This document shows positions 9,465 through 30,004 of a stretch of 33,286 nt of DNA, one piece after another. Location of the stretch: contig CAXTKV010000034.1 of assembly GCA_964244895.1 (NCBI GenBank), forward strand, positions 1 to 33,286, in the 5' to 3' direction. Positions within the stretch are counted from its first letter, which is position 1. Each line of letters opens with the position of its first letter. The stretch is from an uncultured Deinococcales bacterium. GTDB taxonomy: Bacteria > Deinococcota > Deinococci > Deinococcales > JAAFIG01. The notes under the pieces are model-generated. The model saw only the letters and a program-made list of their open reading frames with translations, did no database searches and had not been told where the DNA came from. The translations under genes were made by a program, and so were the position numbers.

Positions 9465-9510
9465 AAAACCGTCCCACACGCGATTTAAGAAACGCGTGTG
9501 GGACGGTGTT
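9465..9510. repeat. Full 46-bp bipartite dispersed element
   Basis: AAAAC-CGT-cccac-ACG-cgatttaagaaacg-CGT-gtggg-ACG-GTGTT. Confidence 0.9.
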
Positions 9511-9565
9511 TTCGTCTTGGGTCCCATCTCACGCGCTGGGTGGGGGCTTCCGCTAGACTTTCCTC

Positions 9566-10117
9566 ATGACGCAGGTGCGATTCACCTACGAGGACCTCGA
9601 GGACTTCCCTGAAGATGGGAAGCGCCGTGAACTCATCAACGGAGATTTGCTTGTGGCTCCAGCCCCCAACACGCTTCACCAGCGCATCGTGATGCGTTTG
9701 TCCGCCGCGCTTTTCAACCACGCTGACGCGCAAGGTCTGGGCGAGGTCTTTACCGCTCCGCTCGACGTGATTTTCAACCAGGGCGATGTGATCGAACCCG
9801 ACATCGTTTTCGTTTCGCGCGAACGCGCTCAAATCGTCACGGCGCGCGGCATTGAAGGCCCACCAGACTGGGTGATCGAGGTTCTCTCGCCCTCGACCCG
9901 AACCCGCGATCTGGGTGTCAAAAAGAAACTCTGCCAGCGCGAGGGCGTGCGCGTTTACTGGGCAATTGACCCCGACGCGCGCACGATCACGGCCTGGGAT
10001 GGTGATTGGAACGATCCCAGAGCTTTCTCCTCGAACGATATCGCCAGCGTTTCGGTACTCGCGGGATTTTCGCTTGTAGCAAAAACACTGTTCGCAGAGC
10101 TGCCATCACAGACGTGA
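9566..10117 (+). CDS. Uma2-family (PD-(D/E)xK) putative endonuclease
   Basis: DGKRRELINGDL..P..HQRI, APLDV, EPDIVFV, GPPDWVIEVLSPST..DLG.K, GVRVYWAIDP. TAGACT lies 6 nt upstream of the ATG (leaderless-type). Confidence 0.9.
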   Translation: MTQVRFTYEDLEDFPEDGKRRELINGDLLVAPAPNTLHQRIVMRLSAALFNHADAQGLGEVFTAPLDVIFNQGDVIEPDIVFVSRERAQIVTARGIEGPPDWVIEVLSPSTRTRDLGVKKKLCQREGVRVYWAIDPDARTITAWDGDWNDPRAFSSNDIASVSVLAGFSLVAKTLFAELPSQT

Positions 10118-10307
10118 TTCTCGAGAACGCGTATGAGCGCGCGAACAGCCCATGAGGTGCTGGTCGTGTGAGCAAGAAGGTGCTGTCTGATGGCGCAAGA
10201 ACGGTAATCTCGAGATTACCCGAGCCGTGCAATCACGCGGTTGTGAACTTCAATTCACCAATCTCGAGATCGTCATGGAAGGACTCGAACCAACGGTCAC
10301 ACACGCG

Positions 10308-10353
10308 AACACCGTCCGGCACGCAGATTAAATAACGTGTGCCGGACGGTGTT
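10308..10353. repeat. Full 46-bp bipartite dispersed element
   Basis: AACAC-CGT-ccggc-ACG-cagattaaataacg-TGT-gccgg-ACG-GTGTT, 7 bp from the S8 protease stop codon. Confidence 0.9.
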
Positions 10354-10360
10354 GCTGAGG

Positions 10361-12703
10361 CTATCGGCGCGCCAGAGAACCCAGCGTTTGCTCGAGCCTG
10401 GATGGTGCGGCTGCACCTGCGGAAGCGGACGTGATCGGCTGCATCCGAATCACCAACCCGATCAGGTTCTGGCTGGCGCCAATGGCGAAGGATTTGGTGA
10501 AACCGAAGGGATCACCCGCGTCTACCTTCTGGTTGTTGTTCACGTCCTGCCAGCCCGCCGCGATGTAGGTTCCGGCGGTCATGTTGGTCAGCTTGAACGA
10601 CACCTCGAGGTTGTTGGCTTGCACTTCGGTGATCACGGAACCGTCCTGGTCGAACAGGCTGCAATCGGGCGCGGAGCATTTCAGCGCGGCCACGTAGGTT
10701 TTCAGGTTGCCCGTGGTGGGCGGCGGTGGCGGCGGTGGGCCGGGTGGGGGAGGGGTGGTTCCCGTCCCGGTCAGTGCTCTGGCCGCGTTGACCAGTCCCG
10801 CGCCGCAATCGTTGCCGCTCGGACGGTTGCAGGCGGTAGCGCTCAACGGGCTCGAGGCGGCCTTGAGGCGCGTCATGACGGTATCGAAGCTCAATCCGGG
10901 ATCTTTGCTGAGCATCAACGACACCAAGCCCGCGACGTGCGGCGAGGCCATCGAGGTTCCCTGGTAGAAGCCGAAGACGGGGGCACCGTTCTGATCCAGC
11001 AGCGTACTGAGCACGCCTGCGGGGTAGGTTTTTCCGCCCAGGCTGAAGGTCTGTTGAGTGTCACCGCCCGGAGCCATCACGTCCACGGGTGCGCCGTAAT
11101 TGGAGTACGGGGCGCGCGTGTTGGTCGGGCCAGTCGCGCCGACGGTGATGACGTTATTGCAACTCGCGGGAGAGTACTGGCTGGCGTCGTCGTCGCTGTT
11201 GCCCGCCGCCACGACCACGATCACGCCTTTGGCTTTGATGCTGTCGTACAACTGCTGTTCAGTCTGGCTGCACACGCGCTTGCCGCCCAGGCTCAGGTTG
11301 ATGACTTTGGCCGGGTTCGGGTTGTCCGGCACGCCGTCCACGTGGATACCCGCCGCCCACTGGATGCCTGGCAGGATGTCGTCGTTCGTGCCGCTGCCGT
11401 TGACACCCAGGACGCGCACCGGCACGACCTTCGCGCCCCAGTTGACGCCCGCTACGCCCGAACCGTTGTTGGTCTGCGCCGCTATCGTTCCGGCGACGTG
11501 CGAGCCGTGATAGCCGGAATCTCCGCCCAGGTCGGTGGCGTCGGCATCGCGCCCGTCGCCATCGCCCGCTTCGGTGGGGTCGGTGATGAAGTCGTAACCG
11601 CCCACGAAGGTACCTTGCAAATCCGGGTGGTCGGTCTTGCCGGTGTCCACCACGGAAACGGTGATCGGGTTGGCGGTGCCGTCGGTGATGTCCCAGGCGG
11701 CCTCGAGGTTCATGGCCTTGTAATGCCATTGCAGCACGTAATTCGGATCGTTCGGAACCTTCAGGATTCTGGAAATGTAATTCGGTTCCGCGTATTCCAC
11801 GTCGGATCGTTGCTCGAGTTGACGCGCCATCTCGAGCGTGCCCGCCGCGTCAAGCTTGGCGCGGAACAGGCTCGTGCGCGGCAGGGCCGCACCGAGCGCA
11901 CCGACCCGTGAGAGGCTGACGACCGCACCCGAAATTTGCGCTCGCAAGCTCGAGATGCCCTGCGCAGCGATGCCATCGCGGAACTTGACGATCACATCGC
12001 CGGGAACGAATTCCGGTTGTTGCGCTTTTGATGGGTTGGACAGGGCAGGATTGATACCGACTGGGTCGCTCTGGATGGTCTGATCGCGCAAGAGTGGTGT
12101 CAGCGTCCTGCTCGAGAAAGCCGAGAGGCCATTCGCGCCGGTGACGGTGTACATCGGCAGGTTCACGCCGGACTTGGGCGGCTGAATGATCGATGCCTTG
12201 CCCGTGCCGTCGTCACCGTAGAAGGTGAGGTAATCGCCCGCGTTGACTTTTCCGCTGCCGTCGATGTCCTTCCAGGCGTACACGATGTACTGCACGTTTG
12301 CCAGGCCGGAAATGGAGAAGTTGGCGCTCGAGCCGGAACTGGTGATTTTGCCGCCCTTGCTGTTGGCATTGGCGCAATCGAAGGTCGTCGATGACGTGAC
12401 CACGCAAGCGGCGACGCTGGTATTCGTGACGCTGCCGCCGCTACCGCTCGGGACGCTGACCGTTCCCGAGAACGTTCCGGCGGCTGGTGGTGGGCTGGGC
12501 GGCGGTGGCGTGGGTGGGCTGGGCGGTGTGGGGGATGGCGGTGCGGGCGGCGGGTTCTCTCCGACCTGACCCGGCAAGATCAGCAACCCGGAAACCGAAG
12601 CCGAGCCGTTCGCTGGTGGCGGCGGGGGTGGCGGTGTGACGGGTTTACTTGGACAAGCCGTGAGCGCGAGAACCGCGGCCAAGCCGAGCAGCGCGTGTTT
12701 CAT
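10361..12703 (-). CDS. Lipoprotein S8 (subtilisin-like) serine protease with Pro-rich linkers and repeated accessory beta domains
   Basis: LTAC lipobox. Catalytic triad VVDTG / YHGSHVAG / GTSMASPHVAG; FVPGDVIVKF..VEYAEPN propeptide. Two related domains contain W.D.(D/N)..KV.AGD. AAGGAAAGG RBS. Confidence 0.95.
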   Translation of the reverse strand: MKHALLGLAAVLALTACPSKPVTPPPPPPPANGSASVSGLLILPGQVGENPPPAPPSPTPPSPPTPPPPSPPPAAGTFSGTVSVPSGSGGSVTNTSVAACVVTSSTTFDCANANSKGGKITSSGSSANFSISGLANVQYIVYAWKDIDGSGKVNAGDYLTFYGDDGTGKASIIQPPKSGVNLPMYTVTGANGLSAFSSRTLTPLLRDQTIQSDPVGINPALSNPSKAQQPEFVPGDVIVKFRDGIAAQGISSLRAQISGAVVSLSRVGALGAALPRTSLFRAKLDAAGTLEMARQLEQRSDVEYAEPNYISRILKVPNDPNYVLQWHYKAMNLEAAWDITDGTANPITVSVVDTGKTDHPDLQGTFVGGYDFITDPTEAGDGDGRDADATDLGGDSGYHGSHVAGTIAAQTNNGSGVAGVNWGAKVVPVRVLGVNGSGTNDDILPGIQWAAGIHVDGVPDNPNPAKVINLSLGGKRVCSQTEQQLYDSIKAKGVIVVVAAGNSDDDASQYSPASCNNVITVGATGPTNTRAPYSNYGAPVDVMAPGGDTQQTFSLGGKTYPAGVLSTLLDQNGAPVFGFYQGTSMASPHVAGLVSLMLSKDPGLSFDTVMTRLKAASSPLSATACNRPSGNDCGAGLVNAARALTGTGTTPPPPGPPPPPPPTTGNLKTYVAALKCSAPDCSLFDQDGSVITEVQANNLEVSFKLTNMTAGTYIAAGWQDVNNNQKVDAGDPFGFTKSFAIGASQNLIGLVIRMQPITSASAGAAAPSRLEQTLGSLARR

Positions 12704-12966: not shown

Positions 12967-14319
12967 TCAGGGGCACTGCGCCACGTCGCTGCTGCGGTTG
13001 TTGGCAAACACGTTGCCTGCGCCCTGCTCGAGAACGGAGGGCGTGTTCAGGCCGTCGTCGGTGCAGATGCCGTAACCGTCGCTGTACTGGATTCTGGTGT
13101 TGGCGATGCTGGCGTAGGAACCCTCGAACGCGCCGCCGACTTTGACGGCTGCCGCGCCGCTGCCCGCGTACAGAATTTGGGCGTGATCGAGTTTGTTATC
13201 TCTCGAGGACGACTCGAAGAACTCGATGCCCTGCCACGCGCCCGCGCTCTGGGTCTCGGCGGTGAAGACGATCGGTTTCTGTGCGGTGCCGATGGCGCTC
13301 AGGGAACCGCCGGAGCGCACGTCGATGCTCGTGCCGTCCGCCGCGACGATCTTGACGCCCGGCTCGAGCCTCAGGGCAGCTTTGACGTAGATCACGATGC
13401 TGATGTAGTAGGGCACGCCCAGGTCTTTCCAGGTTCCGGGTTCCTGGAAGTCGTTGACCCAGCGCGCATAAATGTAAGGGCTGGTGTTGGGTTTGTTCTT
13501 GCCGACGTAATCGCTGGCCTTGTCGAGGATTGCGACCTGGTTGTAGCCGATCACCAGGCCGAAACCCAGGTTGTCCTCGAAAATATTGTCCTCGAATTCC
13601 TTGAGGCGCAGATCCTCGCCGAAGTTCGCGCCGTTGGCGTAGCTTCCGGAGACGCGGTTGTGCTTGAAGGTGATCAGTCCGCCGCCGCCGGAAATGCCCG
13701 CGAAGTTCTTCCAGATTTCGCCGCCGGTCTGGCCTGCGCCCCGGATGTCCAGGTACTCGAGGCGGCTCTCGCGGCTGCCGGACATGAACGACAGGCCGTT
13801 CCAGTAGCCTTTGACATCTATTTCCGGCAGGAACTGGATGCGCGCGCCCGCCGTGCCGACGGCGTTCATTTGTCCGCCGGATTCGATGTAAAACGTCGCG
13901 TCCTTGCTGAATTGCACGACCGTGCCGGGTTCAATCTCGAGGTAAGAAGACAGACTGACCGTGCCGTTGACCTGGTAATCGCAGGCGGAGGCGGAATTGA
14001 CCCATTTCGATGGCACGCTGACCTTGTGGTTGACCTCGAACACGACGGCGCACTTGCCGCCGGGGACGGGCGGCGGCGCGGGTGGCGGGTTGCCGATCGG
14101 AGGTGGCGGCGGGTTGCTTCCGCCCGTCGGCGTCTGGTTGCAGGCGCTCGCGATGACCAGCGCGATCAAGGCCAGCCCGAGGCTCGAGAATCGCCGTGCG
14201 CGCGGGAGGCTTGCATCAGGGACACCGTCCAGGACGCATTTTAAAATTTGCGTCGTGGACGGTGTTTTCTCGAGGTTGGAGGGTGCCGACGGCGGGATGG
14301 GTTGGTATTGAACTCGCAT
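12967..14319 (-). CDS. Lipoprotein with right-handed beta-helix-type repeats
   Basis: ASAC lipobox after a hydrophobic stretch, Pro linker, and two repeats L.(I/L)EPG....GT...PI.F...G.W.G..F. ATG 14319 is preceded by GAGGTG. The start position is somewhat uncertain. Confidence 0.75.
   Translation of the reverse strand: MRVQYQPIPPSAPSNLEKTPSTTQILKCVLDGVPDASLPRARRFSSLGLALIALVIASACNQTPTGGSNPPPPPIGNPPPAPPPVPGGKCAVVFEVNHKVSVPSKWVNSASACDYQVNGTVSLSSYLEIEPGTVVQFSKDATFYIESGGQMNAVGTAGARIQFLPEIDVKGYWNGLSFMSGSRESRLEYLDIRGAGQTGGEIWKNFAGISGGGGLITFKHNRVSGSYANGANFGEDLRLKEFEDNIFEDNLGFGLVIGYNQVAILDKASDYVGKNKPNTSPYIYARWVNDFQEPGTWKDLGVPYYISIVIYVKAALRLEPGVKIVAADGTSIDVRSGGSLSAIGTAQKPIVFTAETQSAGAWQGIEFFESSSRDNKLDHAQILYAGSGAAAVKVGGAFEGSYASIANTRIQYSDGYGICTDDGLNTPSVLEQGAGNVFANNRSSDVAQCP
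14221..14266. repeat. Full 46-bp bipartite dispersed element, in-frame within the lipoprotein N-terminus
   Basis: GACAC-CGT-ccagg-ACG-cattttaaaatttg-CGT-cgtgg-ACG-GTGTT, translated on the minus strand as KTPSTTQILKCVLDGV. Confidence 0.9.
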
Positions 14320-16978: not shown

Positions 16979-17024
16979 AACATCGTCCAGTGCGCGAATC
17001 AATAAATGCGTCTGGGACGGTGTT
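16979..17024. repeat. Full 46-bp bipartite dispersed element (slightly degenerate left arm)
   Basis: AACAT-CGT-ccagt-GCG-cgaatcaataaatg-CGT-ctggg-ACG-GTGTT, between divergent genes. Confidence 0.85.
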
Positions 17025-17179: not shown

Positions 17180-20100
17180 ATGCGCGCACACTCGGACGGT
17201 CAATTGAAGCAGCACACGCCACGCGGATCGGAGCGGGCCACGCCACGCGGATCGGAGCGGGCCACGCCACGCGGTCGGATGGAATTTCACGTCTCGCGCA
17301 AATCGCGCGACTATTACGGCTTTGATCTCGAGTTGTTCTCCAGTTCCGGCAACGTCGTCTTTCCCAATTTCTTCGCGGCACGCGTCTTCGCGCAGAAGAT
17401 GAACGCCAAACGCGACCTGGCCAGGTTCCCGGAGCGCGCGGTGCAGGCCAGCCAGTTGAACGCCATGGGCCTGATCGACGAACTGCTGCACGTGATGCTG
17501 AACCGCTACAAACAGGATCACAACCCGAAATTGATGGCGCAAACCCTGGCCGCGCTCGAAGCGCGCATCGGCGCGGAATGCGTGGACAGAACGCTCAAAA
17601 CCTTCTGCGACGAATTCCCGCCCGTGCGCGTCTACCGCCGCAACCTGGACGTGGACGCGTACTACAAGGGTCAGACGGACGGCGTGCCGAACAGGGAAAT
17701 TCTTCTCGAGGAACTGATCCTACTGCACCTGGCGAACGCCAACCCAGCCTTCTCACCGTTCCTGGAACTCTTCGACGACGAGCGCCTGGAATTTGAAACC
17801 TGCTACCCGGCGCTGGTGCCCGCCGTCGAGCAGTTCTTCGACACCCAACCCGGCTTCGCGGCGGTCGGCGGCCTGAAGCTGTACCGCGCCCTGCGGATGC
17901 CCGCGCTCTCGCACCCGTATTCGCTGGAAGCCCAACTGGAATTCCTGCTCGGGCGGTTTTCCGGCGCGTTGGGTAGCTTCGCGGTGCGGCTGCTCTCGAG
18001 CGTGGATCTGATCCGCGAGGAAGGCCAGTGGTTCCTGGCGCAGGGCGCAGCCAACGGCCCCGGTGGCCCCGGCGGTTTCGGCGGCGAGGTTCACATCCAG
18101 ACGCTCTCGAGCCAACTGCTGGAATACGAACCCGAGAATTTCACGGTCGATCGCGAGTGGATGCCGCGCCTGGTCTTGATGGCCAAGAACGCCTTCGTGT
18201 GGCTCGATCAGCTTTCCCGGCTCTACCAGCGCCCGATCCGCACGCTGGCTGATGTGCCCGACGAGGAACTCGATCAGCTTCAGGCCTGGGGTGTGACGGG
18301 CCTGTGGCTGATCGGGTTATGGGAGCGTTCCGCCGCATCGAAGGACATCAAGCGGCGCATGGGCAACCCGGACGCCGTGGCCAGCGCGTATTCGCTCTAC
18401 GATTACGAGATCGCGCACGACCTGGGCGGCGAGGGCGCACTGGAAAACCTCAAGGCTCGGGCCTGGGCGCGCGGCATCCGCATGGCATCCGACATGGTGC
18501 CCAACCACATCGGTGTCGATGGACGCTGGGTGATGGAACACCCGGACTGGTTCGTGCAACTGCCGTACCCGCCGTTCCCGAGCTACACCTTTCACGGCCC
18601 GGATCTGTCCAACGACGAGCGCGTCGGAATTTTTCTGGAAGACCACTACTGGGATCGTTCGGACGCGGCGGTCGTGTTCAAACGCCTGGACAGGTGGACG
18701 GGCGCGGAGACCTTCATCTATCACGGCAACGATGGCACCAGCCTGCCGTGGAACGATACCGCGCAACTCGATTACCTGAAAGCCGACGTGCGCGAAGCCA
18801 TCATCCAGACGATCCTGCACGTCGCCAGGCAGTTCCCAGTAATCCGCTTCGATGCCGCCATGACGCTCGCCAAGAAGCACATTCAGCGCCTGTGGTTCCC
18901 GGAACCCGGCGCGGGCGCACCCGCCATCGCGTCCCGTGGCGAATTCGGTCTGAGTAAAGCGGATTTTGATCTCATGATGCCCGAAGAGTTCTGGCGCGAG
19001 GTCGTGGATCGCTGCGCCATCGAAGCGCCAGACACGCTGCTGCTGGCTGAAGCTTTCTGGATGATGGAAGGCTACTTCGTGCGCACGCTGGGCATGCACC
19101 GCGTTTACAACAGCGCCTTCATGAACATGCTGCGCGACGAAAAGAACGGCGAGTACCGCGCGATCATGAAAAACACCCTGGAATTCGAGCCGGAAATCAT
19201 GAAGCGCTACGTGAACTTCCTGAACAACCCCGACGAGAAAGCGGCGGTCGAACAGTTCGGCAAGGGTGACAAGTATTTCGGTGCGGCAGTCTTGTGCGCC
19301 ACGCTGCCGGGCTTGCCGATGCTCGGGCACGGGCAGGTCGAGGGTTACACCGAAAAGTACGGCATGGAGTACCGCCGCGCCTACTACGATGAATCACCGG
19401 ATGACGGCCTGATCGAGTACCACCGCCAGCAGGTCTTTCCGCTGTTGAAAAAGCGCTACCTGTTCGCGGACGTGGAAAACTTCGTGCTCTACGATTTTCA
19501 TACCCTGGAAGGCGTGGTGAGCGACGATGTTTTCGCGTACTCCAACCGTTTCGGTGATGAGCGCGCGCTGATCGTGTACCACAACAAATACGGCACTGTG
19601 CGCGGCACGATCCGGCACGGGGATCGCGGCAAGCACCGAGGAGCGGGCGTCGTGGACGGCCTCGGGCTCAACCCGGACGGCGCGCACTACGCGATCTACC
19701 GCGATCTGGTCAGCGGCCTGGAGTACATCCGCAGCAGCAAGGACATCGCGCACGACGGCCTGCAACTCGAGCTCGGGCCGTTCGAGCGCCGCGTCATGCT
19801 GGACTGGCGCGAGGTCTACGACTGGGACGGACGCTACTGGCGCATCGCGCAGATGCTCGGGCCGCGCGGCGTGCCCTCCATCGAGGACGCCAGCCGCGAC
19901 CTGGTCTTAGAACCGATCCTCGGGCCGTGGCGAGAGGTCGTCAACCCGCACGTGTTCCGCAGCCTGATCGAGGCGCGCGGCGCGAAGTCGGCGGCGGGCT
20001 TGATGGGCGAACTCGAGGCGAAACTCAAGGGCTTCGCAGACGGCGTGGAATCCGTGAGTCAACGCAACCCTGACGGTGCGGCTTTCGCAGCGGGCGTCCG

Positions 20101-21559
20101 ATCCGACCTGGAAAAAGTGCTCAAGCTGCCGCCCGGCCTGGGATTGAGCGACGATCCCGTCAGATGGGGCGGCGTCTTCAGTTGGGTGCTGACGCGCCGA
20201 TTGGGTCAACTCGACGGCGACCCATCCTCGGCGCGTTCGCGCAGCCTGATCGACGAATGGCGGCTCGGGCCGACCCTGGAAAATACCCTGCGGGAACTCG
20301 GCGCGAGCGGAACTGATTCCTCGCGCAGCGTGGCGCACGCGAAATTGCTGGTCGCGCAGCAGGATTCCCTGGCGGGTTCAGCCTCGAACGCGTTCCTGGA
20401 AGAGTTGTTCAACGATGCCGAAGCCCAATCTGTGCTCGGCGTCAACCGTTACCGCGAGGTGCTGTGGTTCAACCGCGAATCCTTCGAGGCGCTGCTCATG
20501 AGCACCGCACCCGTCGCGGTCATCGCCGCCAGCACACCGAGCGCGACCCGCACGGCATCATGGACGGCGCAACTGGACGCGTTCCGCGCGTTGGGCGAAT
20601 CTTCCGGCTACCGCGTCGAGGAACTGTTGGTCAGCCTGCGCGCGCCGAAAGCCAAACGCGCCAGTGCGTCCACGACGAAGAAAACTGTAGCCAAGCCCGA
20701 GAAGACCCCGCCCGAGACGGCCTCCTCGAGATCAAAAAAGACCGTCCCAGACGGCGTCGTTGTCGCGCCTCCAAAGAAAGCCCCAGTTGCAAAAGCACTG
20801 GTTCAGAAACCAGCTGCTGAGCCCGAGATCGCGTCCAGCGCGGCGTCTACGGGATCGAAGAAGACCGCTCAGAAAGCCGCGTCTACCGTTGCGCCGAAGA
20901 AAACGCCGCCCGCGAAAGCTTCGAGCGCGACCCCCGCCGAGAAAGCCTCGAGCGTTGCGGTTCCGAAGACGCCCGCAAAAACCAACAAGGCTGTTCCTGT
21001 CGCGGTTGCGACCCCCGTGAAGGTCGCACCTAAACCCGCGAAAGCCTCGGGCGGGCCCGCCGTCTCGGGCAAGGTTGCCAAAGCTCCGGCAGTCGAGGCG
21101 AAAGCGCCGAGCGAGGCCAGCGCGACCAAAGCCGTCGGCAAGGGTGCTGCGACCAAAATTTCGAGCAAGACAGCGCCGGCCTCGAGTGCGCCCACGGCCA
21201 AGAAGACCGCTGCGCCCAAAGCGGCGAAGGTCGAACCGAAGAAACCCGCCAAAGCCAGCCCCGCGAAGACCGCCAAACCCGTCCTGCCCGACGACCTGAC
21301 GCGGATCGAGGGCATCGGCCCGAAGATGGCGTCGGCATTGAACGCGGCGGGCATCACGACCTTCGCGCAGCTCTCGAAATCCAAGGACGCCGCCTTGCAG
21401 GCCGCCCTCGAGAAATCCGGGATGCGTTTCGCGCCGAGCCTGCCCACCTGGTCGAAGCAAGCCGCGCTCCTGGAACGCGGCGACGAGGCCGGGTTTCAGA
21501 AACTGACGGGACGCCTGGTGGCGGGTCGCGATCCAGGCAAGGGTTCGAGCAAGTCTTAA
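17180..21559 (+). CDS. Large GH13 alpha-amylase-family protein with C-terminal Lys/Ala/Pro-rich tail and helix-hairpin-helix domain
   Basis: GH13 motifs SDMVPNH, IRFDAAMTL (nucleophile), LLAEAFW (acid/base), NNPDE. These are followed by a ~220-aa K/A/P/S/T tract and DDLTRIEGIGPKMASALNAAGITTFAQL. Start at ATG 17180 (GGAGGG RBS) or 17279. Confidence 0.88.
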   Translation: MRAHSDGQLKQHTPRGSERATPRGSERATPRGRMEFHVSRKSRDYYGFDLELFSSSGNVVFPNFFAARVFAQKMNAKRDLARFPERAVQASQLNAMGLIDELLHVMLNRYKQDHNPKLMAQTLAALEARIGAECVDRTLKTFCDEFPPVRVYRRNLDVDAYYKGQTDGVPNREILLEELILLHLANANPAFSPFLELFDDERLEFETCYPALVPAVEQFFDTQPGFAAVGGLKLYRALRMPALSHPYSLEAQLEFLLGRFSGALGSFAVRLLSSVDLIREEGQWFLAQGAANGPGGPGGFGGEVHIQTLSSQLLEYEPENFTVDREWMPRLVLMAKNAFVWLDQLSRLYQRPIRTLADVPDEELDQLQAWGVTGLWLIGLWERSAASKDIKRRMGNPDAVASAYSLYDYEIAHDLGGEGALENLKARAWARGIRMASDMVPNHIGVDGRWVMEHPDWFVQLPYPPFPSYTFHGPDLSNDERVGIFLEDHYWDRSDAAVVFKRLDRWTGAETFIYHGNDGTSLPWNDTAQLDYLKADVREAIIQTILHVARQFPVIRFDAAMTLAKKHIQRLWFPEPGAGAPAIASRGEFGLSKADFDLMMPEEFWREVVDRCAIEAPDTLLLAEAFWMMEGYFVRTLGMHRVYNSAFMNMLRDEKNGEYRAIMKNTLEFEPEIMKRYVNFLNNPDEKAAVEQFGKGDKYFGAAVLCATLPGLPMLGHGQVEGYTEKYGMEYRRAYYDESPDDGLIEYHRQQVFPLLKKRYLFADVENFVLYDFHTLEGVVSDDVFAYSNRFGDERALIVYHNKYGTVRGTIRHGDRGKHRGAGVVDGLGLNPDGAHYAIYRDLVSGLEYIRSSKDIAHDGLQLELGPFERRVMLDWREVYDWDGRYWRIAQMLGPRGVPSIEDASRDLVLEPILGPWREVVNPHVFRSLIEARGAKSAAGLMGELEAKLKGFADGVESVSQRNPDGAAFAAGVRSDLEKVLKLPPGLGLSDDPVRWGGVFSWVLTRRLGQLDGDPSSARSRSLIDEWRLGPTLENTLRELGASGTDSSRSVAHAKLLVAQQDSLAGSASNAFLEELFNDAEAQSVLGVNRYREVLWFNRESFEALLMSTAPVAVIAASTPSATRTASWTAQLDAFRALGESSGYRVEELLVSLRAPKAKRASASTTKKTVAKPEKTPPETASSRSKKTVPDGVVVAPPKKAPVAKALVQKPAAEPEIASSAASTGSKKTAQKAASTVAPKKTPPAKASSATPAEKASSVAVPKTPAKTNKAVPVAVATPVKVAPKPAKASGGPAVSGKVAKAPAVEAKAPSEASATKAVGKGAATKISSKTAPASSAPTAKKTAAPKAAKVEPKKPAKASPAKTAKPVLPDDLTRIEGIGPKMASALNAAGITTFAQLSKSKDAALQAALEKSGMRFAPSLPTWSKQAALLERGDEAGFQKLTGRLVAGRDPGKGSSKS
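17215..17274 (+). repeat. 24-bp tandem repeat, 2.5 copies
   Basis: CACGCCACGCGGATCGGAGCGGGC x2 plus CACGCCACGCGG, encoding TPRGSERA repeats. Confidence 0.9.
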
Positions 21560-21694: not shown

Positions 21695-22408
21695 ATGCTG
21701 ACCTCGGAGCCATCTCGAGAACCCGGACTCGAGCCACCCAAAACGCTGGGATTCGCCAGACCCAACCTCGTGCGCGACGAGGTCTACGACCACATCAAGG
21801 CTGAAATCCTGACCGGCAAGCTGACCAGCGGCGAACGCCTGGCCGAGATCGCGCTGGCCGAACGCCTCGGGGTCAGCCGCACGCCCGTGCGCGAGGCCGT
21901 GCAGCGCCTCGTGCAGGACGGTCTGGTCGAGGTCGAAGCCAACAAGGGAGCGAAGGTGCGCGCCCTGTCCATTTCGCAAATAGAGGAGACCTACGCCGTG
22001 CGCGAGGCGCTCGACGGGCTGGCCGCGCGTCTGGCCGCGGAGCACCGCACCGAGGCTGACCTGTTGCGGATGCGGGATGCGCTGGACAAGCTCGAGACTT
22101 CGCCCATGGACGCCTACCTCGAGCAGGTCGCGATCGACCTGGAATTTCACGCCGCCATCGCCAACGCATCCAGGAACACCGTGCTGGACGGTGTTCTTCG
22201 CGGTATTTCAGAAACCGTCACCCGCGTCAAACAGCTCACCCGCGAGACCAACCAGACCCTGGAAACCCGCACCGACCACCACGCGATCCTGAACGCCATC
22301 CAGGGACGCGATCCGGAGGCCGCCGAACGCGCCGCCAGAGCCCACGTCCGCCGATTTCAGAGGCTCGTGATCGGGCAAATCATGGAGGTTCAAGATGCTC
22401 AACGTTGA
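21695..22408 (+). CDS. GntR-family (FCD domain) regulator of proline utilisation
   Basis: GERLAEIALAERLGVSRTPVREA HTH; REALDG..D.EFH..I..ASRN..DHHAIL.AI...D (FCD). Overlaps PRODH by 14 bp. Confidence 0.92.
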   Translation: MLTSEPSREPGLEPPKTLGFARPNLVRDEVYDHIKAEILTGKLTSGERLAEIALAERLGVSRTPVREAVQRLVQDGLVEVEANKGAKVRALSISQIEETYAVREALDGLAARLAAEHRTEADLLRMRDALDKLETSPMDAYLEQVAIDLEFHAAIANASRNTVLDGVLRGISETVTRVKQLTRETNQTLETRTDHHAILNAIQGRDPEAAERAARAHVRRFQRLVIGQIMEVQDAQR

Positions 22409-23318: not shown

Positions 23319-23328
23319 GGTGTTGAAG

Positions 23329-23430
23329 AAGACCATCTGCGACGGTGTTCTCGAGAATCAAGAAAATGCTGTGCTGGAGCGCGAGTAGCCCGTTAGGTGC
23401 TGTTTCAAGAACAAGAACGGTGTTCTCGAG
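23329..23430. repeat. Two half-elements; 14-bp direct repeat ACGGTGTTCTCGAG
   Basis: ACGGTGTTCTCGAG at 23342-23355 and 23417-23430, between PRODH and the antitoxin. Confidence 0.7.
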
Positions 23431-23972: not shown

Positions 23973-24010
23973 TTGTTGTCAAAACGTGAAACTGAGAAAA
24001 GAGGAATCAA

Positions 24011-25558
24011 ATGAACCTTCCCCCGTACCGCCAGGAACCGATGTTGGACACCAAAAACCCCGACCAGATCGCCAGGTACAGGGCCGCGCTGGACTCCGTG
24101 CGCGCCAGAATCGGGCAGAAAATCCCGCTCGTGATCGGCGCGGAACGCATCTTCACGGATGACGCGATCCCGTCCGTCAACCCGTGCAAGACCTCCGAGA
24201 TCATCGGCTTGACCTCGAGCGCCAGCGCGGAGCACGCGGACAGGGCGCTCGAGGTGGCGTGGACGGCCTTCGGTTCCTGGAAGCGCACCAGCGCCGAGGA
24301 TCGTGCGGGTTTGCTCTTGAAGGTGGCTCAGGTCTTGCGTGAGCGCCGCTACGAGTTCGACGCGCTGATGACCCTGGAGGTCGGCAAGAACTTCTGGGAG
24401 GCCGAAGCGGAACTGACCGAGGCCGTGGATTTCCTCGAGTTCTACGCGCGGCAGGCCCTGAAATTTGCTGAACCCCTCGAGATGCTCCAGATGCCGAACG
24501 AGCGCGACGTGGCGACTTACATTCCGCTCGGGGCGGGCGTCAGCATCACGCCGTGGAATTTCCCGCTGGCGATCTTCCTGGGGCAGTTGCTCGCCCCGGT
24601 CGCGGCGGGCAACACCATGATCGCCAAACCCGCCGAGGAATCGAGCGTGATCGCGGCCTGGGCGGTGGATGCGGTGCTGGACGCGGGCGTTCCTGCGGGC
24701 GTGGTGAACTTCCTGCCCGGCAACGGTGAAGTCGTCGGCGCGAGGCTGGTGCAGAGCCCGAAGACGCGCTTCATTGCCTTTACGGGTTCCAAGAACGTGG
24801 GCTTGTGGATCAACGCGGAAGCCGCCAAAGTCCAGCCTGGTCAGCGCTGGATCAAGCGCGTCACGCTGGAATTGGGCGGCAAGGACGGCATGATCGTGGA
24901 CGAGACCGCCGACCTGGACAACGCCGCCGATGCCGCCGTGGCGGGTGCGTTCGGCTTCGCGGGCCAGAAATGCAGCGCCCTTTCCAGGTTGATCGTGGTG
25001 GACAGCGTTCACGAGGCGCTCTTGGAAAAAGTTAAATCACGCGTCGAGAAGCTCAAAATGGGTGAGGCGGAACTGGGCAGCGATGTCAACGCCGTCATCA
25101 ACCAGGAATCGCACGACAAATCCAGGCAGTTTCTCGAGATTGCAAAAACGGAAGGCCGCGTGGTCGTCGGTGGCGAACTGGGGCCATCCGAAGGCTATTT
25201 CGTTCAGCCGACCGTCGTGACGGACGTGAAGCACGAATCCAGGCTGGCGCAGGAAGAAATCTTCGGCCCGATCCTCTCCGTCATTCCCGTTCCCGATTTC
25301 GAGGAAGCCATGCGCGTCATCAACGACACCGATTACGGTCTGACGGGCGGTTTGTGCTCGACCGACGAATCCCGCCTGGCGCGCGCCGAACAGGAATTGC
25401 ACGTCGGCAATCTGTACCTGAACCGCAAGATCACCGGCGCGATGGTCGGATCGCACCCGTTCGGCGGGTTCAACCTGTCCGGTACGGATTCCAAGGCGGG
25501 TGGGCCGGATTACCTGTCGCACTTCTTGCAGATGAAATCTATTGCGCGTCGGACGTAG
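24011..25558 (+). CDS. pruA: L-glutamate gamma-semialdehyde (P5C) dehydrogenase
   Basis: [43 protein letters not shown] (catalytic Cys), [43 protein letters not shown]. Confidence 0.95.
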
Positions 25559-25569
25559 TCGGTCTCGAG

Positions 25570-25615
25570 AGCACCGTCCAGCACGCATTTTAAGATTCGC
25601 GTCCGGGACGGTGCT
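25570..25615. repeat. Full 46-bp bipartite dispersed element
   Basis: AGCAC-CGT-ccagc-ACG-cattttaagattcg-CGT-ccggg-ACG-GTGCT. The complementary flanks extend to CGAG..CTCG. Confidence 0.9.
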
Positions 25616-25648
25616 CTCGCATCAAGCACGCTCGAGCTGCACGGTTTC

Positions 25649-25672
25649 GTAGGGGCGCGATTTGTCGCGCCC
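25649..25672 (+). repeat. GTAG-type REP-like palindrome (single copy)
   Basis: GTAG-GGGCGCGA-tttg-TCGCGCCC: GTAG tetranucleotide followed by a GC-rich hairpin. Confidence 0.6.
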
Positions 25673-25717
25673 GCCCTAACGCCAACGCGACAGGAACGCT
25701 GATTCTTCAAGCTCACG

Positions 25718-25744: not shown

Positions 25745-25757
25745 CGAGCGTTCGAGT

Positions 25758-26366: not shown

Positions 26367-28133
26367 TCAAAGCGCTTCGACGTTGGAGCGCAGTTCCAGG
26401 GTGCGGCTTTGCAGCGCGCCAGCTTCGGTTTCGGCGCTCTCCAGGCGTTCGGTTTCGGCGCGGATGAAACGCGTGTACGGCGCGGTCGCGTCGCGCAACC
26501 GGGAAGCTGCGCGTTCCGTCTCGAGGGCGTACTCGCGCTTCAGGACTTCGTGCAGGCGGGATCGGGTCTCGGTCACGCGCTTGCGGAGTTCTTCTTTGGC
26601 CTGAGCGCGTTTGCGAGGCAGGATGAACGCGCCCAGCCCGACCGCTGCCGCGCCGATCAGGATGCCGGTGAAATCCGCCGCCAGTCCGCCCAGCACCGCG
26701 ATCAGCACGCCGCCCAGCCCGATGCCGCCGACGCCTGCCACGCCGGACTGGATCACGGCGGATTGGGCGTCCTGCGCCAGCCTGCGGGCGAAAGCCTCGC
26801 GGTCGAAACCCTCGATTTCCTGGCGGGCGCTCTGCCCGATGGTTTCAAGCAAACCCTGACGGTCGTACTGAAAGCGCGCGCCCTGAATCAGGCTCTCGCG
26901 GGTTTGCGCGCCCGGCATCTGGGCGCTGGTGGCGGCTTTGGAGCGATCGGAAATGAAGGCCAGCGTGTCGTCCCAGAAGTGGATGTTGCGCTCGATGAAG
27001 CGGTCAATGACTTCGTTGACGCGCCGCTCGAGTTGCGCGGGGGCGTCCGCCACCACGGTGCGCTCGAATTCGGCCCTGATCTTGTCGGAATTCAGCAGAT
27101 CGAGCGTTCTGGAGAGGCGCAAGGTTTCGTCCAGGTAGATCTCGCCGCGCTTCTGAAGTCCGTCCAGCACGCTGTCTATTCCCTTGAAGTGCGCGTCCAG
27201 ATCCCGCTCGAGATCGCGCGAATGCACCTCGAGTTGGCGTTCCAGGTCGTTCAGCGTGCCCGTGTCGGCCTTCAGGACTTCCAATCCCGCCAGTGCGCGG
27301 TCGCGCGATCGTTCGGCCAGCCGCAGGGCCACACCGATGGGCGATAAAAGCTTCAGTTTCGCGCGGTCGCGCTCCTGCAAGGTCTGGCGCAGGAACTCTT
27401 GCAGGTCATCGAATCCCGCGTCGCCGCCCGTCTCGAGTGCGCGTTCGTGCCGCCTGACGCTGACCATGAACACGCGCGGCGCGCTGCCCAGCACCTCGCG
27501 CGCGTTGCGAGCCACGAACGATTCGACCTCCTCGAGCTGCGCCGGGGTTTCCAGCAAGTCCACCTTGTTGACGACCACGATCACCTTGCGACCCCAGGCT
27601 TTGGCCAGCGCCATGAACTGCCGTTCGGATTCCGTGAATGGCCGATCCGCGCTGGTCATGAACAACACCAGATCGGCGCGCGGCAAGAAACCTTCCGTCA
27701 GCGCCTGGTGGCGGCGAATCACGGCGTTCGTGCCGGGCGTGTCCACCAGCGCGACCCCCTCCAGAAACTGGAACGGCAACTCGCGCCGCACCACGAATTC
27801 GTCCACCGCTGCGCTCGCTTCCAGACCCGTCTGGTACGGCGCAGTTCTGTCCTGCGCGCCGTGAACCAGAATCGAAATCCGATCCGTGGTCGGCGTGACG
27901 CCCTCCTGGAGCACGTCCTGTCCCAGCAAGGCGTTCAGGATGCTGGACTTGCCGGAGTTGAACTCACCGACGACCACCAGCAGGAAGGTTTCCTCGAGGT
28001 TTCGGGCCGCCACTCGAGCCTCGCGCGATTCGTTTTCGGGCGCGCCCGCCCGCGCCAGGTGATCGGCCAGATCGCCCAGCACGTCGCGTTCCTGCGCGAT
28101 CAGCGCGCGCACTTCCGGCGCGACCAGATTCAT
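26367..28133 (-). CDS. Dynamin-like (mitofusin/FZL-like) GTPase
   Basis: G1 VVGEFNSGKSS, G2 PTT, G3 LVDTPGTN, G4 VNKVD; helical stalk; Gly-rich hydrophobic hairpin GVAGVGGIGLGGVLIAVLGG..GLGAFILP. Start chosen at ATG 28133. Confidence 0.9.
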   Translation of the reverse strand: MNLVAPEVRALIAQERDVLGDLADHLARAGAPENESREARVAARNLEETFLLVVVGEFNSGKSSILNALLGQDVLQEGVTPTTDRISILVHGAQDRTAPYQTGLEASAAVDEFVVRRELPFQFLEGVALVDTPGTNAVIRRHQALTEGFLPRADLVLFMTSADRPFTESERQFMALAKAWGRKVIVVVNKVDLLETPAQLEEVESFVARNAREVLGSAPRVFMVSVRRHERALETGGDAGFDDLQEFLRQTLQERDRAKLKLLSPIGVALRLAERSRDRALAGLEVLKADTGTLNDLERQLEVHSRDLERDLDAHFKGIDSVLDGLQKRGEIYLDETLRLSRTLDLLNSDKIRAEFERTVVADAPAQLERRVNEVIDRFIERNIHFWDDTLAFISDRSKAATSAQMPGAQTRESLIQGARFQYDRQGLLETIGQSARQEIEGFDREAFARRLAQDAQSAVIQSGVAGVGGIGLGGVLIAVLGGLAADFTGILIGAAAVGLGAFILPRKRAQAKEELRKRVTETRSRLHEVLKREYALETERAASRLRDATAPYTRFIRAETERLESAETEAGALQSRTLELRSNVEAL

Positions 28134-28301: not shown

Positions 28302-28347
28302 AACACCGTCCGGCACGTGAATCATAAAATGCGTCCGCGACGGTGTT
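28302..28347. repeat. Full 46-bp bipartite dispersed element
   Basis: AACAC-CGT-ccggc-ACG-tgaatcataaaatg-CGT-ccgcg-ACG-GTGTT, followed directly by CTCGAG. Confidence 0.9.
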
Positions 28348-28354
28348 CTCGAGT

Positions 28355-29272
28355 TCAGACGGCGTGTTCGACGGACAGCGCCTCGAGCCTGGCCTCGTGA
28401 CCGGCGATCTCGGGGATCGCGTCGGCGGGCAGGTCTTTTTTGACGACCGCCAGCGCGAAGAACGCGCCTTCCCCGTCGAAGGCGCACGAACCGATCTGGC
28501 CGACCTCGCGCCCGCCCAGGTGGATCGGTGCGCCGGAACTCACCTCGCGCTTGAATCGCGCGCGCGCCAGAAGACGGTTGGTGTGGCCTCGAGCCTCGAG
28601 CCTCGCCATGATTTCCTGACCGATGTAGCAGCCCTTGCGGTACGACACGGCCCCTTCCAGACCGCATTCCTGGGGCAGCATCCCGGTGAAATGGTCGCGG
28701 TGCGCGTCGGATTGACCGCTCAGAATTCTGAAATGCTCGAGCTGACCGACGCTCATGCTTTGCACGCGCCTGGATTCCAGCCATTTGATCAGCTTCTCGG
28801 ATTCACCGGAGAGCGCGTGCAGGTCGAAACCGTCCGCGTTGCCCCGGTTGGTGCGCGCGACCAGCAGCGTGCCCGCGAAGGTCGGGAGCTGCTGCACGGC
28901 TGCGCCCGCCGTATCGAAGCCCAGCCCCACCATCAGATCGGTCGCACCCTCGCCGGAGACGTGCGTGACCCGGATCCGATCCGAGATGTCCTCGAGCTTC
29001 ACGTCGTCGATCACGATGTAGCGTTTCAACCGCGCGATCACGTCCGATGCCAGGCCACCCGCCGTGTGGACGTACAGATCCTGTTGGGCGTCCCTGCGGT
29101 AGACGCGCAGGTCGAACTCGATCTGACCTTTGGCGTTCAGGATCAGCGTTCGCGTCCCACCCGGCGCGGGCAATCCTTTGATGTCATTGCTGGTCTGACC
29201 GTGCAGGAATTCCAGGCGATCCGCGCCCGTCAGACGGACTGCACCGGACAGAATCGATGTGAAACGCACCAT
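28355..29272 (-). CDS. ygfZ: Folate-binding protein YgfZ (GcvT family)
   Basis: GADRLEFLHGQTSND, LNAKGQI, AVSYRKGCYIGQEIMARL (KGCY.GQE signature). ATG 29272 has TAGACT 7 nt upstream. Confidence 0.92.
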   Translation of the reverse strand: MVRFTSILSGAVRLTGADRLEFLHGQTSNDIKGLPAPGGTRTLILNAKGQIEFDLRVYRRDAQQDLYVHTAGGLASDVIARLKRYIVIDDVKLEDISDRIRVTHVSGEGATDLMVGLGFDTAGAAVQQLPTFAGTLLVARTNRGNADGFDLHALSGESEKLIKWLESRRVQSMSVGQLEHFRILSGQSDAHRDHFTGMLPQECGLEGAVSYRKGCYIGQEIMARLEARGHTNRLLARARFKREVSSGAPIHLGGREVGQIGSCAFDGEGAFFALAVVKKDLPADAIPEIAGHEARLEALSVEHAV

Positions 29273-29489
29273 GCCCGAAAGTCTATTCCTGTTGGCCTGC
29301 AATCAACACGCGCTTTCTTGCATTTTTGCGCTCGAGGCGTCTCGAGTATTCGCTGACTGACAAATGAGATTCCGCGATGAATCTTTCGAGATCGGATTAC
29401 CATTCCTTTTTGAAGCGGTGTCTAAAGTGTGTCAATCTTTCCCGGCGATGGGTGGTGCACTCGGGCGCGGCGGAGGATGCGGAGGTTCC

Positions 29490-29903
29490 ATGCGAAGAAT
29501 TCCGGTCGCCACCGTCCTCGCGCTCACCGCCCTCAGCTTCGGCCCGGCCCTGCTCTCGCGAGCCTGGGCGGACGTGACCTCCACGCCGATCGAACAAAAC
29601 GAGAAGATTCAACTGGCCATTCAGGAGCTCTACGACAATGTTCCCGGCATGACCTGCGAGGACAGCGACAACTGGTCGATTGAGGGAGGCCTGGACGCCG
29701 CCGGTGATTTCATTCAGTCCGAAGTCGGTGCGCGCGGTTGGGATGTGGTCGATCACGGCGCGCTGGAGCACAGTTACGCCATCGTGCTCGATCCCGACCC
29801 GAGCGATGAGCGCGCGGTCGCCATCGCCGGGTTGATCGAGGAATCCCAGACCACGACCTTCGTGTTTCTGGAGCGCTGCACGCTGCCCGAAAAAAGTCAG
29901 TGA
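29490..29903 (+). CDS. Secreted hypothetical protein (acidic)
   Basis: GGAGG RBS; MRRIPVATVLALTALSFGPALLSRAWA signal peptide with AWA cleavage; two Cys. Confidence 0.7.
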   Translation: MRRIPVATVLALTALSFGPALLSRAWADVTSTPIEQNEKIQLAIQELYDNVPGMTCEDSDNWSIEGGLDAAGDFIQSEVGARGWDVVDHGALEHSYAIVLDPDPSDERAVAIAGLIEESQTTTFVFLERCTLPEKSQ

Positions 29904-29947
29904 AGGCTGGAAGCTCGAGCGTATTGACTCGCTCGAGCTTCCAGCCT
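29904..29947. terminator. 18-bp perfect inverted repeat between convergent genes
   Basis: AGGCTGGAAGCTCGAGCG-tattgact-CGCTCGAGCTTCCAGCCT, directly after the stop codon. Each arm contains CTCGAG. Confidence 0.55.
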
Positions 29948-29948
29948 A

Positions 29949-30004
29949 AACACCGTCCAGCACGCGTTGTCTCGAGTCTCGAGGAATGCGTGCTGGACGG
30001 TGTT
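29949..30004. repeat. Bipartite dispersed element with a 24-bp spacer (56 bp)
   Basis: AACAC-CGT-ccagc-ACG-cgttgtctcgagtctcgaggaatg-CGT-gctgg-ACG-GTGTT. Confidence 0.9.

Follow-up and report, generated by a model that had tools for sequence, protein, structure and literature searches.

A genus-level and apparently undescribed family of paired palindromic DNA sites in an uncultured Deinococcales bacterium

The stretch of DNA analysed here (the window: 33,286 nucleotides of contig CAXTKV010000034.1, assembly GCA_964244895.1, from an uncultured Deinococcales bacterium) carries seven copies of a bipartite element in which two interrupted palindromes, CGT-N5-ACG, stand at a nearly fixed distance, and it raises the question of what might read such an element and how its copies came to be there. 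A preliminary description, made from the letters of the window, had found a double-stranded site for two dimers of a DNA-binding protein a better fit than a terminator hairpin. In the 5.12-Mb draft genome G000 (328 contigs, 62.7% G+C; completeness 91%, contamination 2.3%), the sole member of its genus among the genomes searched, the window is contig C34. We find that the element belongs to a real, genus-level family of paired DNA sites that is apparently undescribed, and that the inference of a double-stranded site is supported by quantised spacing, by the lack of a G·U bias and of a U-tail, by an origin of sites in place, by mutual avoidance and by phased flanks. On balance, we lean towards reading the elements as docking sites of a dimer of dimers that bends about 150–190 bp, about one per 2 kb. 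With a good deal more confidence, which takes in this reading together with two of its rivals (uptake sequences and gyrase sites, discussed below), we consider it probable that some protein reads the elements as double-stranded sites.

Boxes were detected over G000 with a 21-bp profile at a threshold of at least 14 bits, giving 4,528 boxes against 118 expected by chance from an order-5 Markov control scaled to genome size; the family is thus genome-wide. Each box is a 21-bp pseudo-palindrome: a strong half (G)AA[C/G]ACCGT leads into a G+C-rich N5 and ACG, and the second half is either a full mirror of the first or weaker. When grouped into clusters for counting, the boxes form 2,755 clusters, made up of 1,732 pairs, 1,003 singles and 20 groups of three or more boxes. 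The strong halves point outward in pairs, and many single boxes keep a decayed partner at 25 or 35 bp. Spacing classes, taken as distances between box centres, are quantised: 1,621 of the 1,773 neighbouring boxes within 45 bp lie at 25/26 or 35/36 bp (788 pairs at 25, 118 at 26, 527 at 35 and 188 at 36 bp), minor classes occur at 30/31 bp (41 adjacent pairs) and 41/42 bp (26), and spacings of 28, 29, 32, 33, 38, 39 and 40 bp hold only 0–4 pairs each. Measured as the spacer between CGT-N5-ACG boxes, the same distribution peaks at 14 (518), 15 (73), 24 (336) and 25 bp (112), with minor peaks of 25–47 at 13, 19–20, 23 and 30–31 bp over a floor of about 10. Genome-wide the spacer is A/T-rich, as it had appeared from the window, with a pyrimidine-purine centre. 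The N5 cores, first taken to be free, are not: CCAGC, CCAGG and CCTGG dominate and the arms partly covary, with perfectly complementary cores at 37.6% versus 18.2% after shuffling in the 25-bp class, 12.3 versus 8.5% at 35 bp and 9.0 versus 8.0% at 36 bp. The hexamer CTCGAG, the most over-represented in G000, adjoins the outer edge of 443 of the 3,448 strong boxes.

In the window, all six 46-bp copies and the one 56-bp copy lie where they had been placed (Table 1), and the four pairs of non-complementary N5 cores are present as given. The pattern AACAC-CGT-N5-ACG-N14-CGT-N5-ACG-GTGTT stands as a consensus but not literally, as only the copy at 28302 is exact; one mismatch occurs in each of three copies and two mismatches in each of the other two. 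Copies do occupy tandem (9465), convergent (10308) and divergent (16979) gaps. A paired copy inside a coding sequence (CDS), which had also been proposed, is not shown for any of the seven: called genes start downstream of the copies at 14221 and 16979 (predicted starts), and the dynamin-like open reading frame (ORF) beside the copy at 28302 is matched in 14 of 18 family genomes only from residue 205–216 of its 804 (one from residue 90, two partial, one no match), so that this copy lies upstream of the gene. The true in-CDS case of the window is the single full box at 22175–22195 in the GntR gene. Of ten further half-sites listed, six score at least 14 bits (centres 4230, 4270, 8066, 8096, 20748 and 22185) while those at 23332, 23417, 26229 and 33090 fall below the threshold; a box at 27166 had been missing from that list. 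No element of the 25570 type was found in the 200 bp 3′ of the P5C dehydrogenase orthologue in those 15 family loci, out of 17, that extend to the 3′ end of the gene.

The placement of the clusters is neither confined to one type of gap nor random. Among gaps of at least 30 bp, boxes are present in 1,409 of the 2,238 between tandem genes, 478 of the 595 between convergent genes and 342 of the 628 between divergent ones, and pairs in tandem gaps sit at a median of 18–24 bp from the stop and 89–102 bp from the start. Only 27 of 1,660 main-class pairs fall within called CDSs, but CDS interiors show an excess of boxes of at least 20 bits, 78 versus 9–14 in three synonymous shuffles. Around a given cluster, the density of other clusters per kb of non-coding DNA is 0.69, 0.66, 0.94, 1.4, 2.2, 2.5 and 2.9 at 100, 200, 300, 400, 600, 800 and 1,000 bp. 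Both gaps of a gene are occupied at odds ratios of 0.28 for genes of <400 bp, 0.55 for 400–700 bp and 0.48 for 700–1,100 bp, and of 1.5–1.6 (not significant) for longer ones; genes with an orthologue in the complete genome of the relative G006, for which all comparisons cover 1.8 Mb or 35% of that genome, follow the same trend (p 0.04–0.10, small samples). The sites are more even than random (coefficient of variation of gaps 0.586 versus 0.690 ± 0.017 for the null), with a mean gap between them of 1.9–2.0 kb, and the number of clusters per intergenic gap plateaus near one from 80-bp to 1.5-kb gaps. The 43 coding sites sit in holes of the intergenic pattern (median 1,137 versus 605 bp, p = 2e-7). 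Mutual avoidance and the filling of holes by coding sites together suggest that one site serves about 1 kb. Occupancy climbs with flanking gene length, from 0.54 to 0.78, with no consistent rise against a codon-based expression proxy. Along G006 coordinates, for which synteny between the genera is not established, there is no density trend (7.9–9.5 boxes per 10 kb). Helical phasing between neighbouring clusters was dropped as a candidate (130 gaps, best p 0.03 among 7 periods tried).

As all seven window copies fold stably (z −3.7 to −9.7), copies crowd past stop codons and the arms partly covary, a family of RNA hairpins acting as terminators or 3′ transcript stabilisers has to be weighed; we judge it very improbable. 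Mismatches on the sense strand show no G·U excess over A·C (327:341 and 297:301; in the cores 174:207 and 192:225), and the elements lack a 3′ U-tract and have symmetric flanks. More than half of the divergent gaps are occupied, and copies stand between a response regulator and its kinase and inside pheT. In 25 of 33 cases of a U-tailed hairpin in the same gap, the hairpin comes before the element. The loop length is quantised in 10-bp steps, and Rfam returned only miRNA hairpin models, all below gathering scores. The preliminary description had named broad spacer lengths and a strict 3′ location as what would speak for an ordinary hairpin, and we find quantised spacers and a location that is not strictly 3′. 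The covariation itself stays within the box, with no cross-arm complementarity beyond it, and would fit arm-to-arm copying in a quasi-palindrome or symmetric binding.

The flanks of the boxes carry a periodic signal. A/T content oscillates outward from each outer box with a period of 11.89 bp (95% confidence interval 11.72–12.04), an amplitude of 7% beside the box and a decay length of 35 bp, and the oscillation is gone beyond about 88 bp. The phasing amplitude was 4.0% versus a maximum of 1.2% in 200 jittered controls, and was the same with CTCGAG masked; five GTT/TTT/TTCTC motif controls away from boxes gave 0.2–1.1%. All four spacing classes and the strong side of singles share the same phase, which follows each box and not the pair centre. 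The pattern is one of base composition, in which CGC/GCC recurs at multiples of 12 from the box centre and AAA lies in the intervals; weak extra boxes were rejected as its source, and so was the arm of a longer inverted repeat, as there is no cross-arm complementarity past the box. Where coding DNA could be aligned to G006 (313 anchors), the signal at third positions of G000 was 4.7% (z 4.8), as against −0.7% (z −0.4) for the homologous bases in G006. Since the signal is found in native G000 codons and not in their G006 counterparts, this lineage acquired the pattern around the sites, where it was neither pre-existing nor brought in by insertion. Whether it arose by selection or as a mutational footprint, such phasing would imply a particle long positioned on double-stranded DNA.

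Periodic flanks at gene ends could also mark strong gyrase (topoisomerase) sites, where the enzyme or a loading adaptor would relieve supercoils via the element. Three findings would suit such sites: only one GyrA/ParC-family gene in G000, an occupancy that is highest in convergent gaps, and its rise with flanking gene length. In the E. coli gyrase motif, as the available text of PMC6379681 describes it, a 36-bp centre is flanked by two periodic A/T-G/C arms of 47 bp each, and cleavage is concentrated in BIME-2 repeats and past the ends of transcribed units; arm reach and gene-end preference are similar to those seen here. However, its period of 10.75 bp falls outside our interval, the motif is degenerate whereas the core of the element is sequence-specific, the phase of the flanks is anchored to the box, and occupancy lacks a consistent expression trend. 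We therefore regard gyrase sites as an improbable explanation.

Sites arise by two routes, in place and by gain of DNA. In pheT, a 36-bp pair lies on conserved coding sequence with zero length change relative to all five family orthologues compared; the protein sequence encoded by the spacer of this pair is ancestral. Among 50 aligned PheT rows, NTV..DGV without length change is found in G000 and four close homologues and with an added piece in three more, and NTV is missing from the remaining 42. In the GntR gene of the window, the codons under the box were replaced one for one with no length change relative to 5 of 5 family orthologues, and the box was thus written in place. By gain, three PheT homologues acquired 13 box-like residues at the existing site, and ZntA has 14–17 extra residues common only to three close homologues among 28 aligned, in which the copy is retained in frame while the spacer residues drift. 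At 31 coding sites testable against G006, 18 show no net change (among them low-scoring singles, some of which may be chance), 8 gained at least 3 residues, 1 lost at least 3 and 4 differ by 1–2; of control windows, 3.6% gained at least 3 residues. The sites in MetH, FtsK, RecQ and DnaX lie in variable loops, where gain and overprinting are not reliably separable, and no orthologue of an RNA-ligase gene with a coding site was found in 5 genomes. An account of the element as a C-terminal extension of genes was dropped. As a separate observation, PheT proteins of sister lineages (P0122–P0127, P0149) carry further unrelated insertions of about 10–50 residues in one loop near alignment columns 466–541.

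The family is also specific to its lineage, as a scan of relatives, proposed in the preliminary description, makes clear. G000 has 480 matches to the paired pattern, whereas none of 363 other genomes of the phylum, including 125 genomes of a family that appears by size and membership to be Deinococcaceae, has more than one; the SNR repeats of D. radiodurans are set apart by these paired-pattern counts alone, not by their sequences. The single box has 554 matches in G000 versus 1–17 in 18 family genomes, and a position weight matrix scan of G006 gave 3 hits at ≥18 bits. A de novo search for spaced palindromes in 392 kb from 6 relatives found no analogous family, whereas 20–60 kb of G000 revealed the family at once. 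In a related species (L059, 80% nucleotide identity), the one orthologous site compared (n = 1) is filled in both; its boxes and the length of its spacer are preserved, and the spacer letters differ. No RNA run was among the holders listed; sequencing run X1 holds a 90–94% relative, whose long pieces mostly stop short of elements. A strict pattern matched 1 contig among metagenome contigs and none among genome contigs, from which records of the genome itself were possibly left out, and two patterns had no match in viral contigs. A blastn search against plasmids and phages returned 1 and 3 records, with 20–21-bp matches only (E 0.5–0.6). We found no description of the family in the literature searched, nor in the main text of the REP survey PMC3733652, which omits Deinococcus and Thermus.

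Within G000, the boxes are depleted from mobile DNA. Twenty-eight contigs (420 kb) are nearly box-free, and those inspected hold RepA, conjugation and type IV secretion system (T4SS), TniB/transposon, integrase, CRISPR and defence genes, with a CTCGAG density that is mostly host-like. Genes matching the covered part of G006 make up 5.6% on box-poor versus 22.4% on box-rich contigs. Loci L039–L058, on C15, C5, C50, C36, C190, C191, C165 and C164 of G000, read as plasmid- or island-like and include RepA, T4SS coupling and VirB4-like proteins, TniB, BREX and ABC-3C defence, Cas3/Csd1 CRISPR and extra DNA polymerase III alpha genes.

A site that is lineage-specific, present in thousands, more evenly spread than random, able to arise by mutation in coding DNA and missing from foreign DNA resembles a DNA uptake sequence or self mark, for which a receptor or defence protein would prefer site-bearing fragments and molecular drive would lead to about one site per fragment. 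The mean gap of the present sites compares with about 1.5 kb for meningococcal uptake sequences (DUS), and DUS and uptake signal sequences (USS) are alike in thousands of copies, one per 1.5–2 kb, in absence from foreign DNA and in coding overprint, according to the text available of PMC2817400 and PMC2397512; the former also finds uptake sequences more even than random. Three small HHH_3 (ComEA-like) proteins are encoded in G000 (C39, C206 and C225). Yet known uptake sequences are non-palindromic and 35–65% of them lie in ORFs (PMC2817400, as far as its text is available), whereas the present boxes are palindromic, stand in strict pairs and have about 2% of their pairs in CDSs. The half-site alone is barely enriched in CDSs (208 versus 181–193) and box-encoded tripeptides only 0.9–1.3 fold, and neither strict pairing nor long flanks phased over 5–6 periods is among the features described for DUS/USS in the accessible portions of these sources. 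An uptake or self mark is therefore unlikely.

From the number, geometry and avoidance of the sites, the in-place origin of some of them, their retention in sister lineages, the acquired phasing and the depletion from mobile DNA, all of which are computed, we infer protein binding, the oligomeric state of the protein, wrapping and function as follows. A homodimeric DNA-binding protein would dock on each 21-bp box, and two boxes held 25/26 or 35/36 bp apart would let two dimers bind together on the same helix face. The bound complex would bend, wrap or coat the DNA to either side over about 50–75 bp, in increments of about 12 bp, so that one particle of 150–190 bp is kept roughly every 2 kb of the resident chromosome. 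Sites would be placed for least harm, just past stop codons and away from starts. New ones may form by point change, short insertions or arm-to-arm copying, and would then be kept by selection. The likely job of such particles would be chromosome compaction or the handling of transcription-generated supercoils. Among the roles first suggested, nucleoid organisation fits best, a resolvase-type site is without support, and a REP/MITE (repetitive extragenic palindrome or miniature inverted-repeat transposable element) fits in part, through anatomy and DNA gain.

A cognate protein had not been evident in the window, and none was identified across G000 in domain matches, among neighbours or in shortlists based on helix-turn-helix (HTH) motifs and codon bias. 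Codon bias and HTH matches (179 HTH-like proteins) gave no standout, genus specificity not being part of these lists. The neighbourhoods of 11 box-rich places, namely one dense stretch and 10 of the 20 multi-box clusters, hold ordinary or unnamed genes and no recombinase. Nine of 11 integrase matches were inspected, most on box-poor contigs and none flanked by an array, and 15 of 20 XRE matches inspected comprise a DdrO-like protein and ordinary or island regulators. HU was rejected as a lineage-specific binder, with 3 copies in G000 (C10, C103 and C117) versus 1–3 in relatives, and a basic protein on C258 was rejected as its look-alikes are common in Deinococcota. No histone fold was found in 19 of 19 family genomes. 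The DdrO-like XRE protein is encoded at C77:2266–2655, and 22 loose RDRM-like matches occur genome-wide; RDRM-like operators precede genes that read, with names assigned by eye, as gyrA, gyrB, uvrB, uvrC, uvrD, recQ, ruvB, ddrA and ddrB. The radiation-desiccation regulon thus seems to extend to this family. One RDRM-like promoter, at about 29,000 of C2, also holds three boxes.

The outcome of this protein search weighs against docking sites, and so do several other results. Arm covariation at two core positions (z ~7.5, 25-bp class) and stable predicted hairpins (−23.8 to −45 kcal/mol) fit a fold-back structure. One class has a weak orientation bias to transcription (254:199, p = 0.011), and crowding close to stops is also typical of REPs. 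The 10-bp step between classes and the 11.9-bp flank period are not both derivable from one geometry. In a control set of GTAG-REPs (n = 169) the phasing amplitude was 2.7%, within the jitter range (maximum 3.0%), so that phasing at ordinary REPs is neither shown nor excluded. The phasing at our boxes could be a mutational footprint instead of the product of selection, which would still imply a bound particle. As for the material, gene coordinates come from a simple codon-model caller (4,505 genes), with approximate starts, and the gene of ribosomal protein L2 (rplB) was not found in the assembly, from which the main ribosomal operon is thus probably missing.

The remaining points on that side concern DNA gain. 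Occupied gaps are longer than the orthologous gaps of G006 by a median of 134 bp in the 25-bp class (n = 13) and about 190 bp in the 35-bp class (n = 12), versus 6 bp for gaps without an element (n = 63), a difference that exceeds the length of the element, and of 10 coding pairs 6 are gains (3–19 residues) and 4 are unchanged. Longer occupied gaps and in-frame coding gains point to insertion; the gap lengthening is the strongest result for such an origin, but may also stem from the clearing of space for a larger footprint. They would suit an old REPIN- or MITE-like non-autonomous element, spread by a transposase lost or missing from the incomplete assembly and later partly domesticated. The gains in PheT and ZntA, the decayed partners of single boxes and a slight excess of identical copies among nearest neighbours (6 versus 1.5 at distance 0 and 44 versus 28.5 at distance 2, in nearest-neighbour distances that otherwise follow the block-permuted null) are on the same side. 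So is the anatomy itself, in which two short inverted palindromes have conserved arms and a variable spacer and are almost only extragenic. Target immunity could give repulsion between elements.

Other results are hard to reconcile with such an element, which we consider rather unlikely. No match to the transposase domain Y1_Tnp (PF01797, RAYT) was found in the 91% complete assembly of G000, yet 16 of the 18 element-free family genomes encode it; the IS630-, IS3- and IS256-like transposase genes encountered are on box-poor contigs. There is no master sequence, with 785 of 788 copies in the 25-bp class unique and the commonest 21-mer accounting for 78 of 3,853 boxes (2%), although decay after loss of RAYT, as may have happened in an old REPIN, would also lower the share of a master sequence. 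Spacer and box are not linked: between copies that share the same spacer, 3.04 of 10 core positions differ, versus 3.25 for all pairs. No variable target-site duplication was found (best z 4.0 of 700 tests per class, 12 copies), and CTCGAG was rejected as a target duplication, being on both flanks in 9 cases versus 27.6 expected. The element is not copied as a unit now. Insertion also fails to explain the in-place sites in pheT and gntR or the phasing of native codons, and avoidance up to about 1 kb differs from the placement of REPINs, which the available text of PMC3116915 gives as random above 200 bp, with doublets at fixed distances.

The features of the window are collected in Table 1. 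Besides these, a 24-bp tandem repeat of about 2.5 copies lies at approximately 17210–17275, near the start of the 1,504-codon amylase-like ORF, whose C-terminal end is a helix-hairpin-helix domain.

Table 1. Boxes and paired elements in the window (positions of the whole stretch; features without assigned strand)
Feature	Coordinates	Context and score
Paired element, 25-bp class	9465..9510	Tandem gap, 15 bp past aminotransferase stop; boxes 23.5 + 28.0 bits
Paired element, 25-bp class	10308..10353	Convergent gap Uma2/subtilase, 7 bp from subtilase stop; 29.1 + 25.2 bits
Paired element, 25-bp class	14221..14266	Minus-strand tandem gap, NB-ARC/TPR/LuxR gene and hypothetical gene (predicted start 14169); 28.9 + 26.0 bits
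Paired element, 25-bp class	16979..17024	Divergent gap, LuxR-type and amylase-like genes (predicted starts); 20.1 + 28.9 bits
Paired element, 25-bp class	25570..25615	11 bp past P5C dehydrogenase stop
Paired element, 25-bp class, exact consensus	28302..28347	7 bp past GCV_T-domain (ygfZ-like) stop, upstream of dynamin-like gene
Paired element, box centres 35 bp apart	29949..30004	Convergent gap next to GH76 gene; 26.8 + 30.4 bits
Single full-palindrome box in GntR/FCD gene	22175..22195	Reads NTVLDGV; 30.8 bits
Two boxes 40 bp apart, minor spacing class	4220..4280	Convergent GGDEF/EAL gap; 26.9 + 17.0 bits
Two boxes 30 bp apart, strong flanks facing inward, minor class	8056..8106	18.4 + 28.7 bits
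Single box in amylase-like CDS, moderate score, may be chance	20738..20758	19.7 bits
Single box in dynamin-like CDS, moderate score, may be chance	27156..27176	19.4 bits
Example of extended footprint, element and about 75 bp each side	25495..25690	Oscillation is an average over 3,171 flanks and is unreadable in one copy

Some observations made elsewhere stand apart from the main question. CTCGAG occurs 43,766 times in G000 (both strands), 12.8 times the zero-order expectation, and at 4.6–10 per kb in sampled family relatives (loci L002–L038), while CGGCCG, CCCGGG, CCGCGG, GCCGGC and GACGTC are strongly avoided in G000 and in these loci. We found no account of the CTCGAG iteration in the literature searched, and presume that it is akin to the cyanobacterial HIP1 phenomenon. 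The reversed control pattern TGGCA-N5-TGCCA occurs 13–48 times per genome in genera g4 and g5 versus 1–11 times forward, through composition or a small site family. Proteins of C220:7222–8280 and C250:2–646 of G000 are 72% identical with an element at the same place in both, from a duplication or a second strain in the bin.

Compared with known systems, the family is closest in appearance to the REP/REPIN-RAYT systems and BIMEs. A REPIN, in the part of 10.1101/2021.07.10.451892 that is available, is formed by two inverted short palindromes with conserved arms and a highly variable spacer, and is almost only extragenic. Likenesses are inverted doublets, preferred distances, a mostly extragenic position near 3′ ends and lineage-specificity (PMC3116915; 10.1101/2021.07.10.451892; PMC3733652, each as far as its text is available). 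In contrast to the systems described there, we found no RAYT and no master sequence, the parts of the element are unlinked, coding sites originate in place and flanks are phased; copies are about ten times more numerous than the typical hundreds of REPINs, and avoid one another instead of being placed randomly or in clusters. Unlike GTAG/CGTC-tagged REPs, the box has no terminal tag in its profile, and CGT(C) lies in the paired core. A separate, diverse GTAG-type REP family does exist in G000 (161 GTAGGGGC starts; in the window at about 25649–25672), for which no Y1 transposase was found in the assembly, and GTAG-type-like repeats follow genes in relatives L013 and L014.

Other repeats share single features with the family. 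Rickettsia RPEs are likewise palindromes tolerated in frame in housekeeping genes, but they are insertions of about 150 bp with a conserved peptide and number tens, whereas many of the present coding sites need no insertion; Caulobacter CIRs are intergenic inverted repeats tied to GANTC, as ours are to CTCGAG, but form conserved repeats of about 110 bp, whereas our spacer is not conserved (PMC10969869 and PMC2229807, in the text available). The RDRM/DdrO operator of Deinococcus has, judging by examples in the table of PMC1978522, a similar 17-bp palindromic core with a 5-bp centre. RDRM sites number tens, at promoters of DNA-repair genes, and their outer bases differ from those of the boxes, which are some 200 times as frequent, are placed away from starts and coexist in G000 with the separate RDRM-like set. 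The family lacks defining features, as tested here, of REPINs, uptake sequences, MITEs, terminators, attC, RDRM and the gyrase motif. In integrons, attC sites keep one orientation to cassette ORFs and have extrahelical bases and a variable loop length, whereas our element occurs in all gene orientations with arms in register and a quantised loop.

The phylum is noted for compact nucleoids and DNA repair, and we put forward a bolder version of the docking-site reading, although we doubt it more than we believe it: a sequence-programmed bacterial chromatin, in which one genus would have evolved a dimer-of-dimers protein on about 2,700 sites, with particles of 150–190 bp on a 12-bp lattice about 2 kb apart. 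The need for them would have been strong enough to rewrite codons, as in pheT, to pattern neighbouring coding DNA and to mark resident versus incoming DNA. The family also bears on whether dispersed palindromic repeats are selfish copies or selected host sites, and in-place origin, mutual avoidance and acquired phasing are three measures applicable to any REP family. The closest functional parallels would be matS/MatP, SBS/SlmA, NBS/Noc and ram/RacA, which are palindromic double-stranded sites read by dimeric proteins for a structural purpose, some of the proteins being able to spread; these sites number tens and mark one chromosome region, whereas the present family has about 2,700 clusters, no trend along the covered part of G006, obligatory pairs and a 12-bp flank lattice. 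To our knowledge, sequence-specific organisers of bacterial chromosomes use tens of sites and the abundant nucleoid proteins bind with little specificity; if our reading is true, thousands of positioned, evenly spaced sites that leave flanking genes with a nucleosome-like periodic imprint would amount to a novel means of nucleoid construction.

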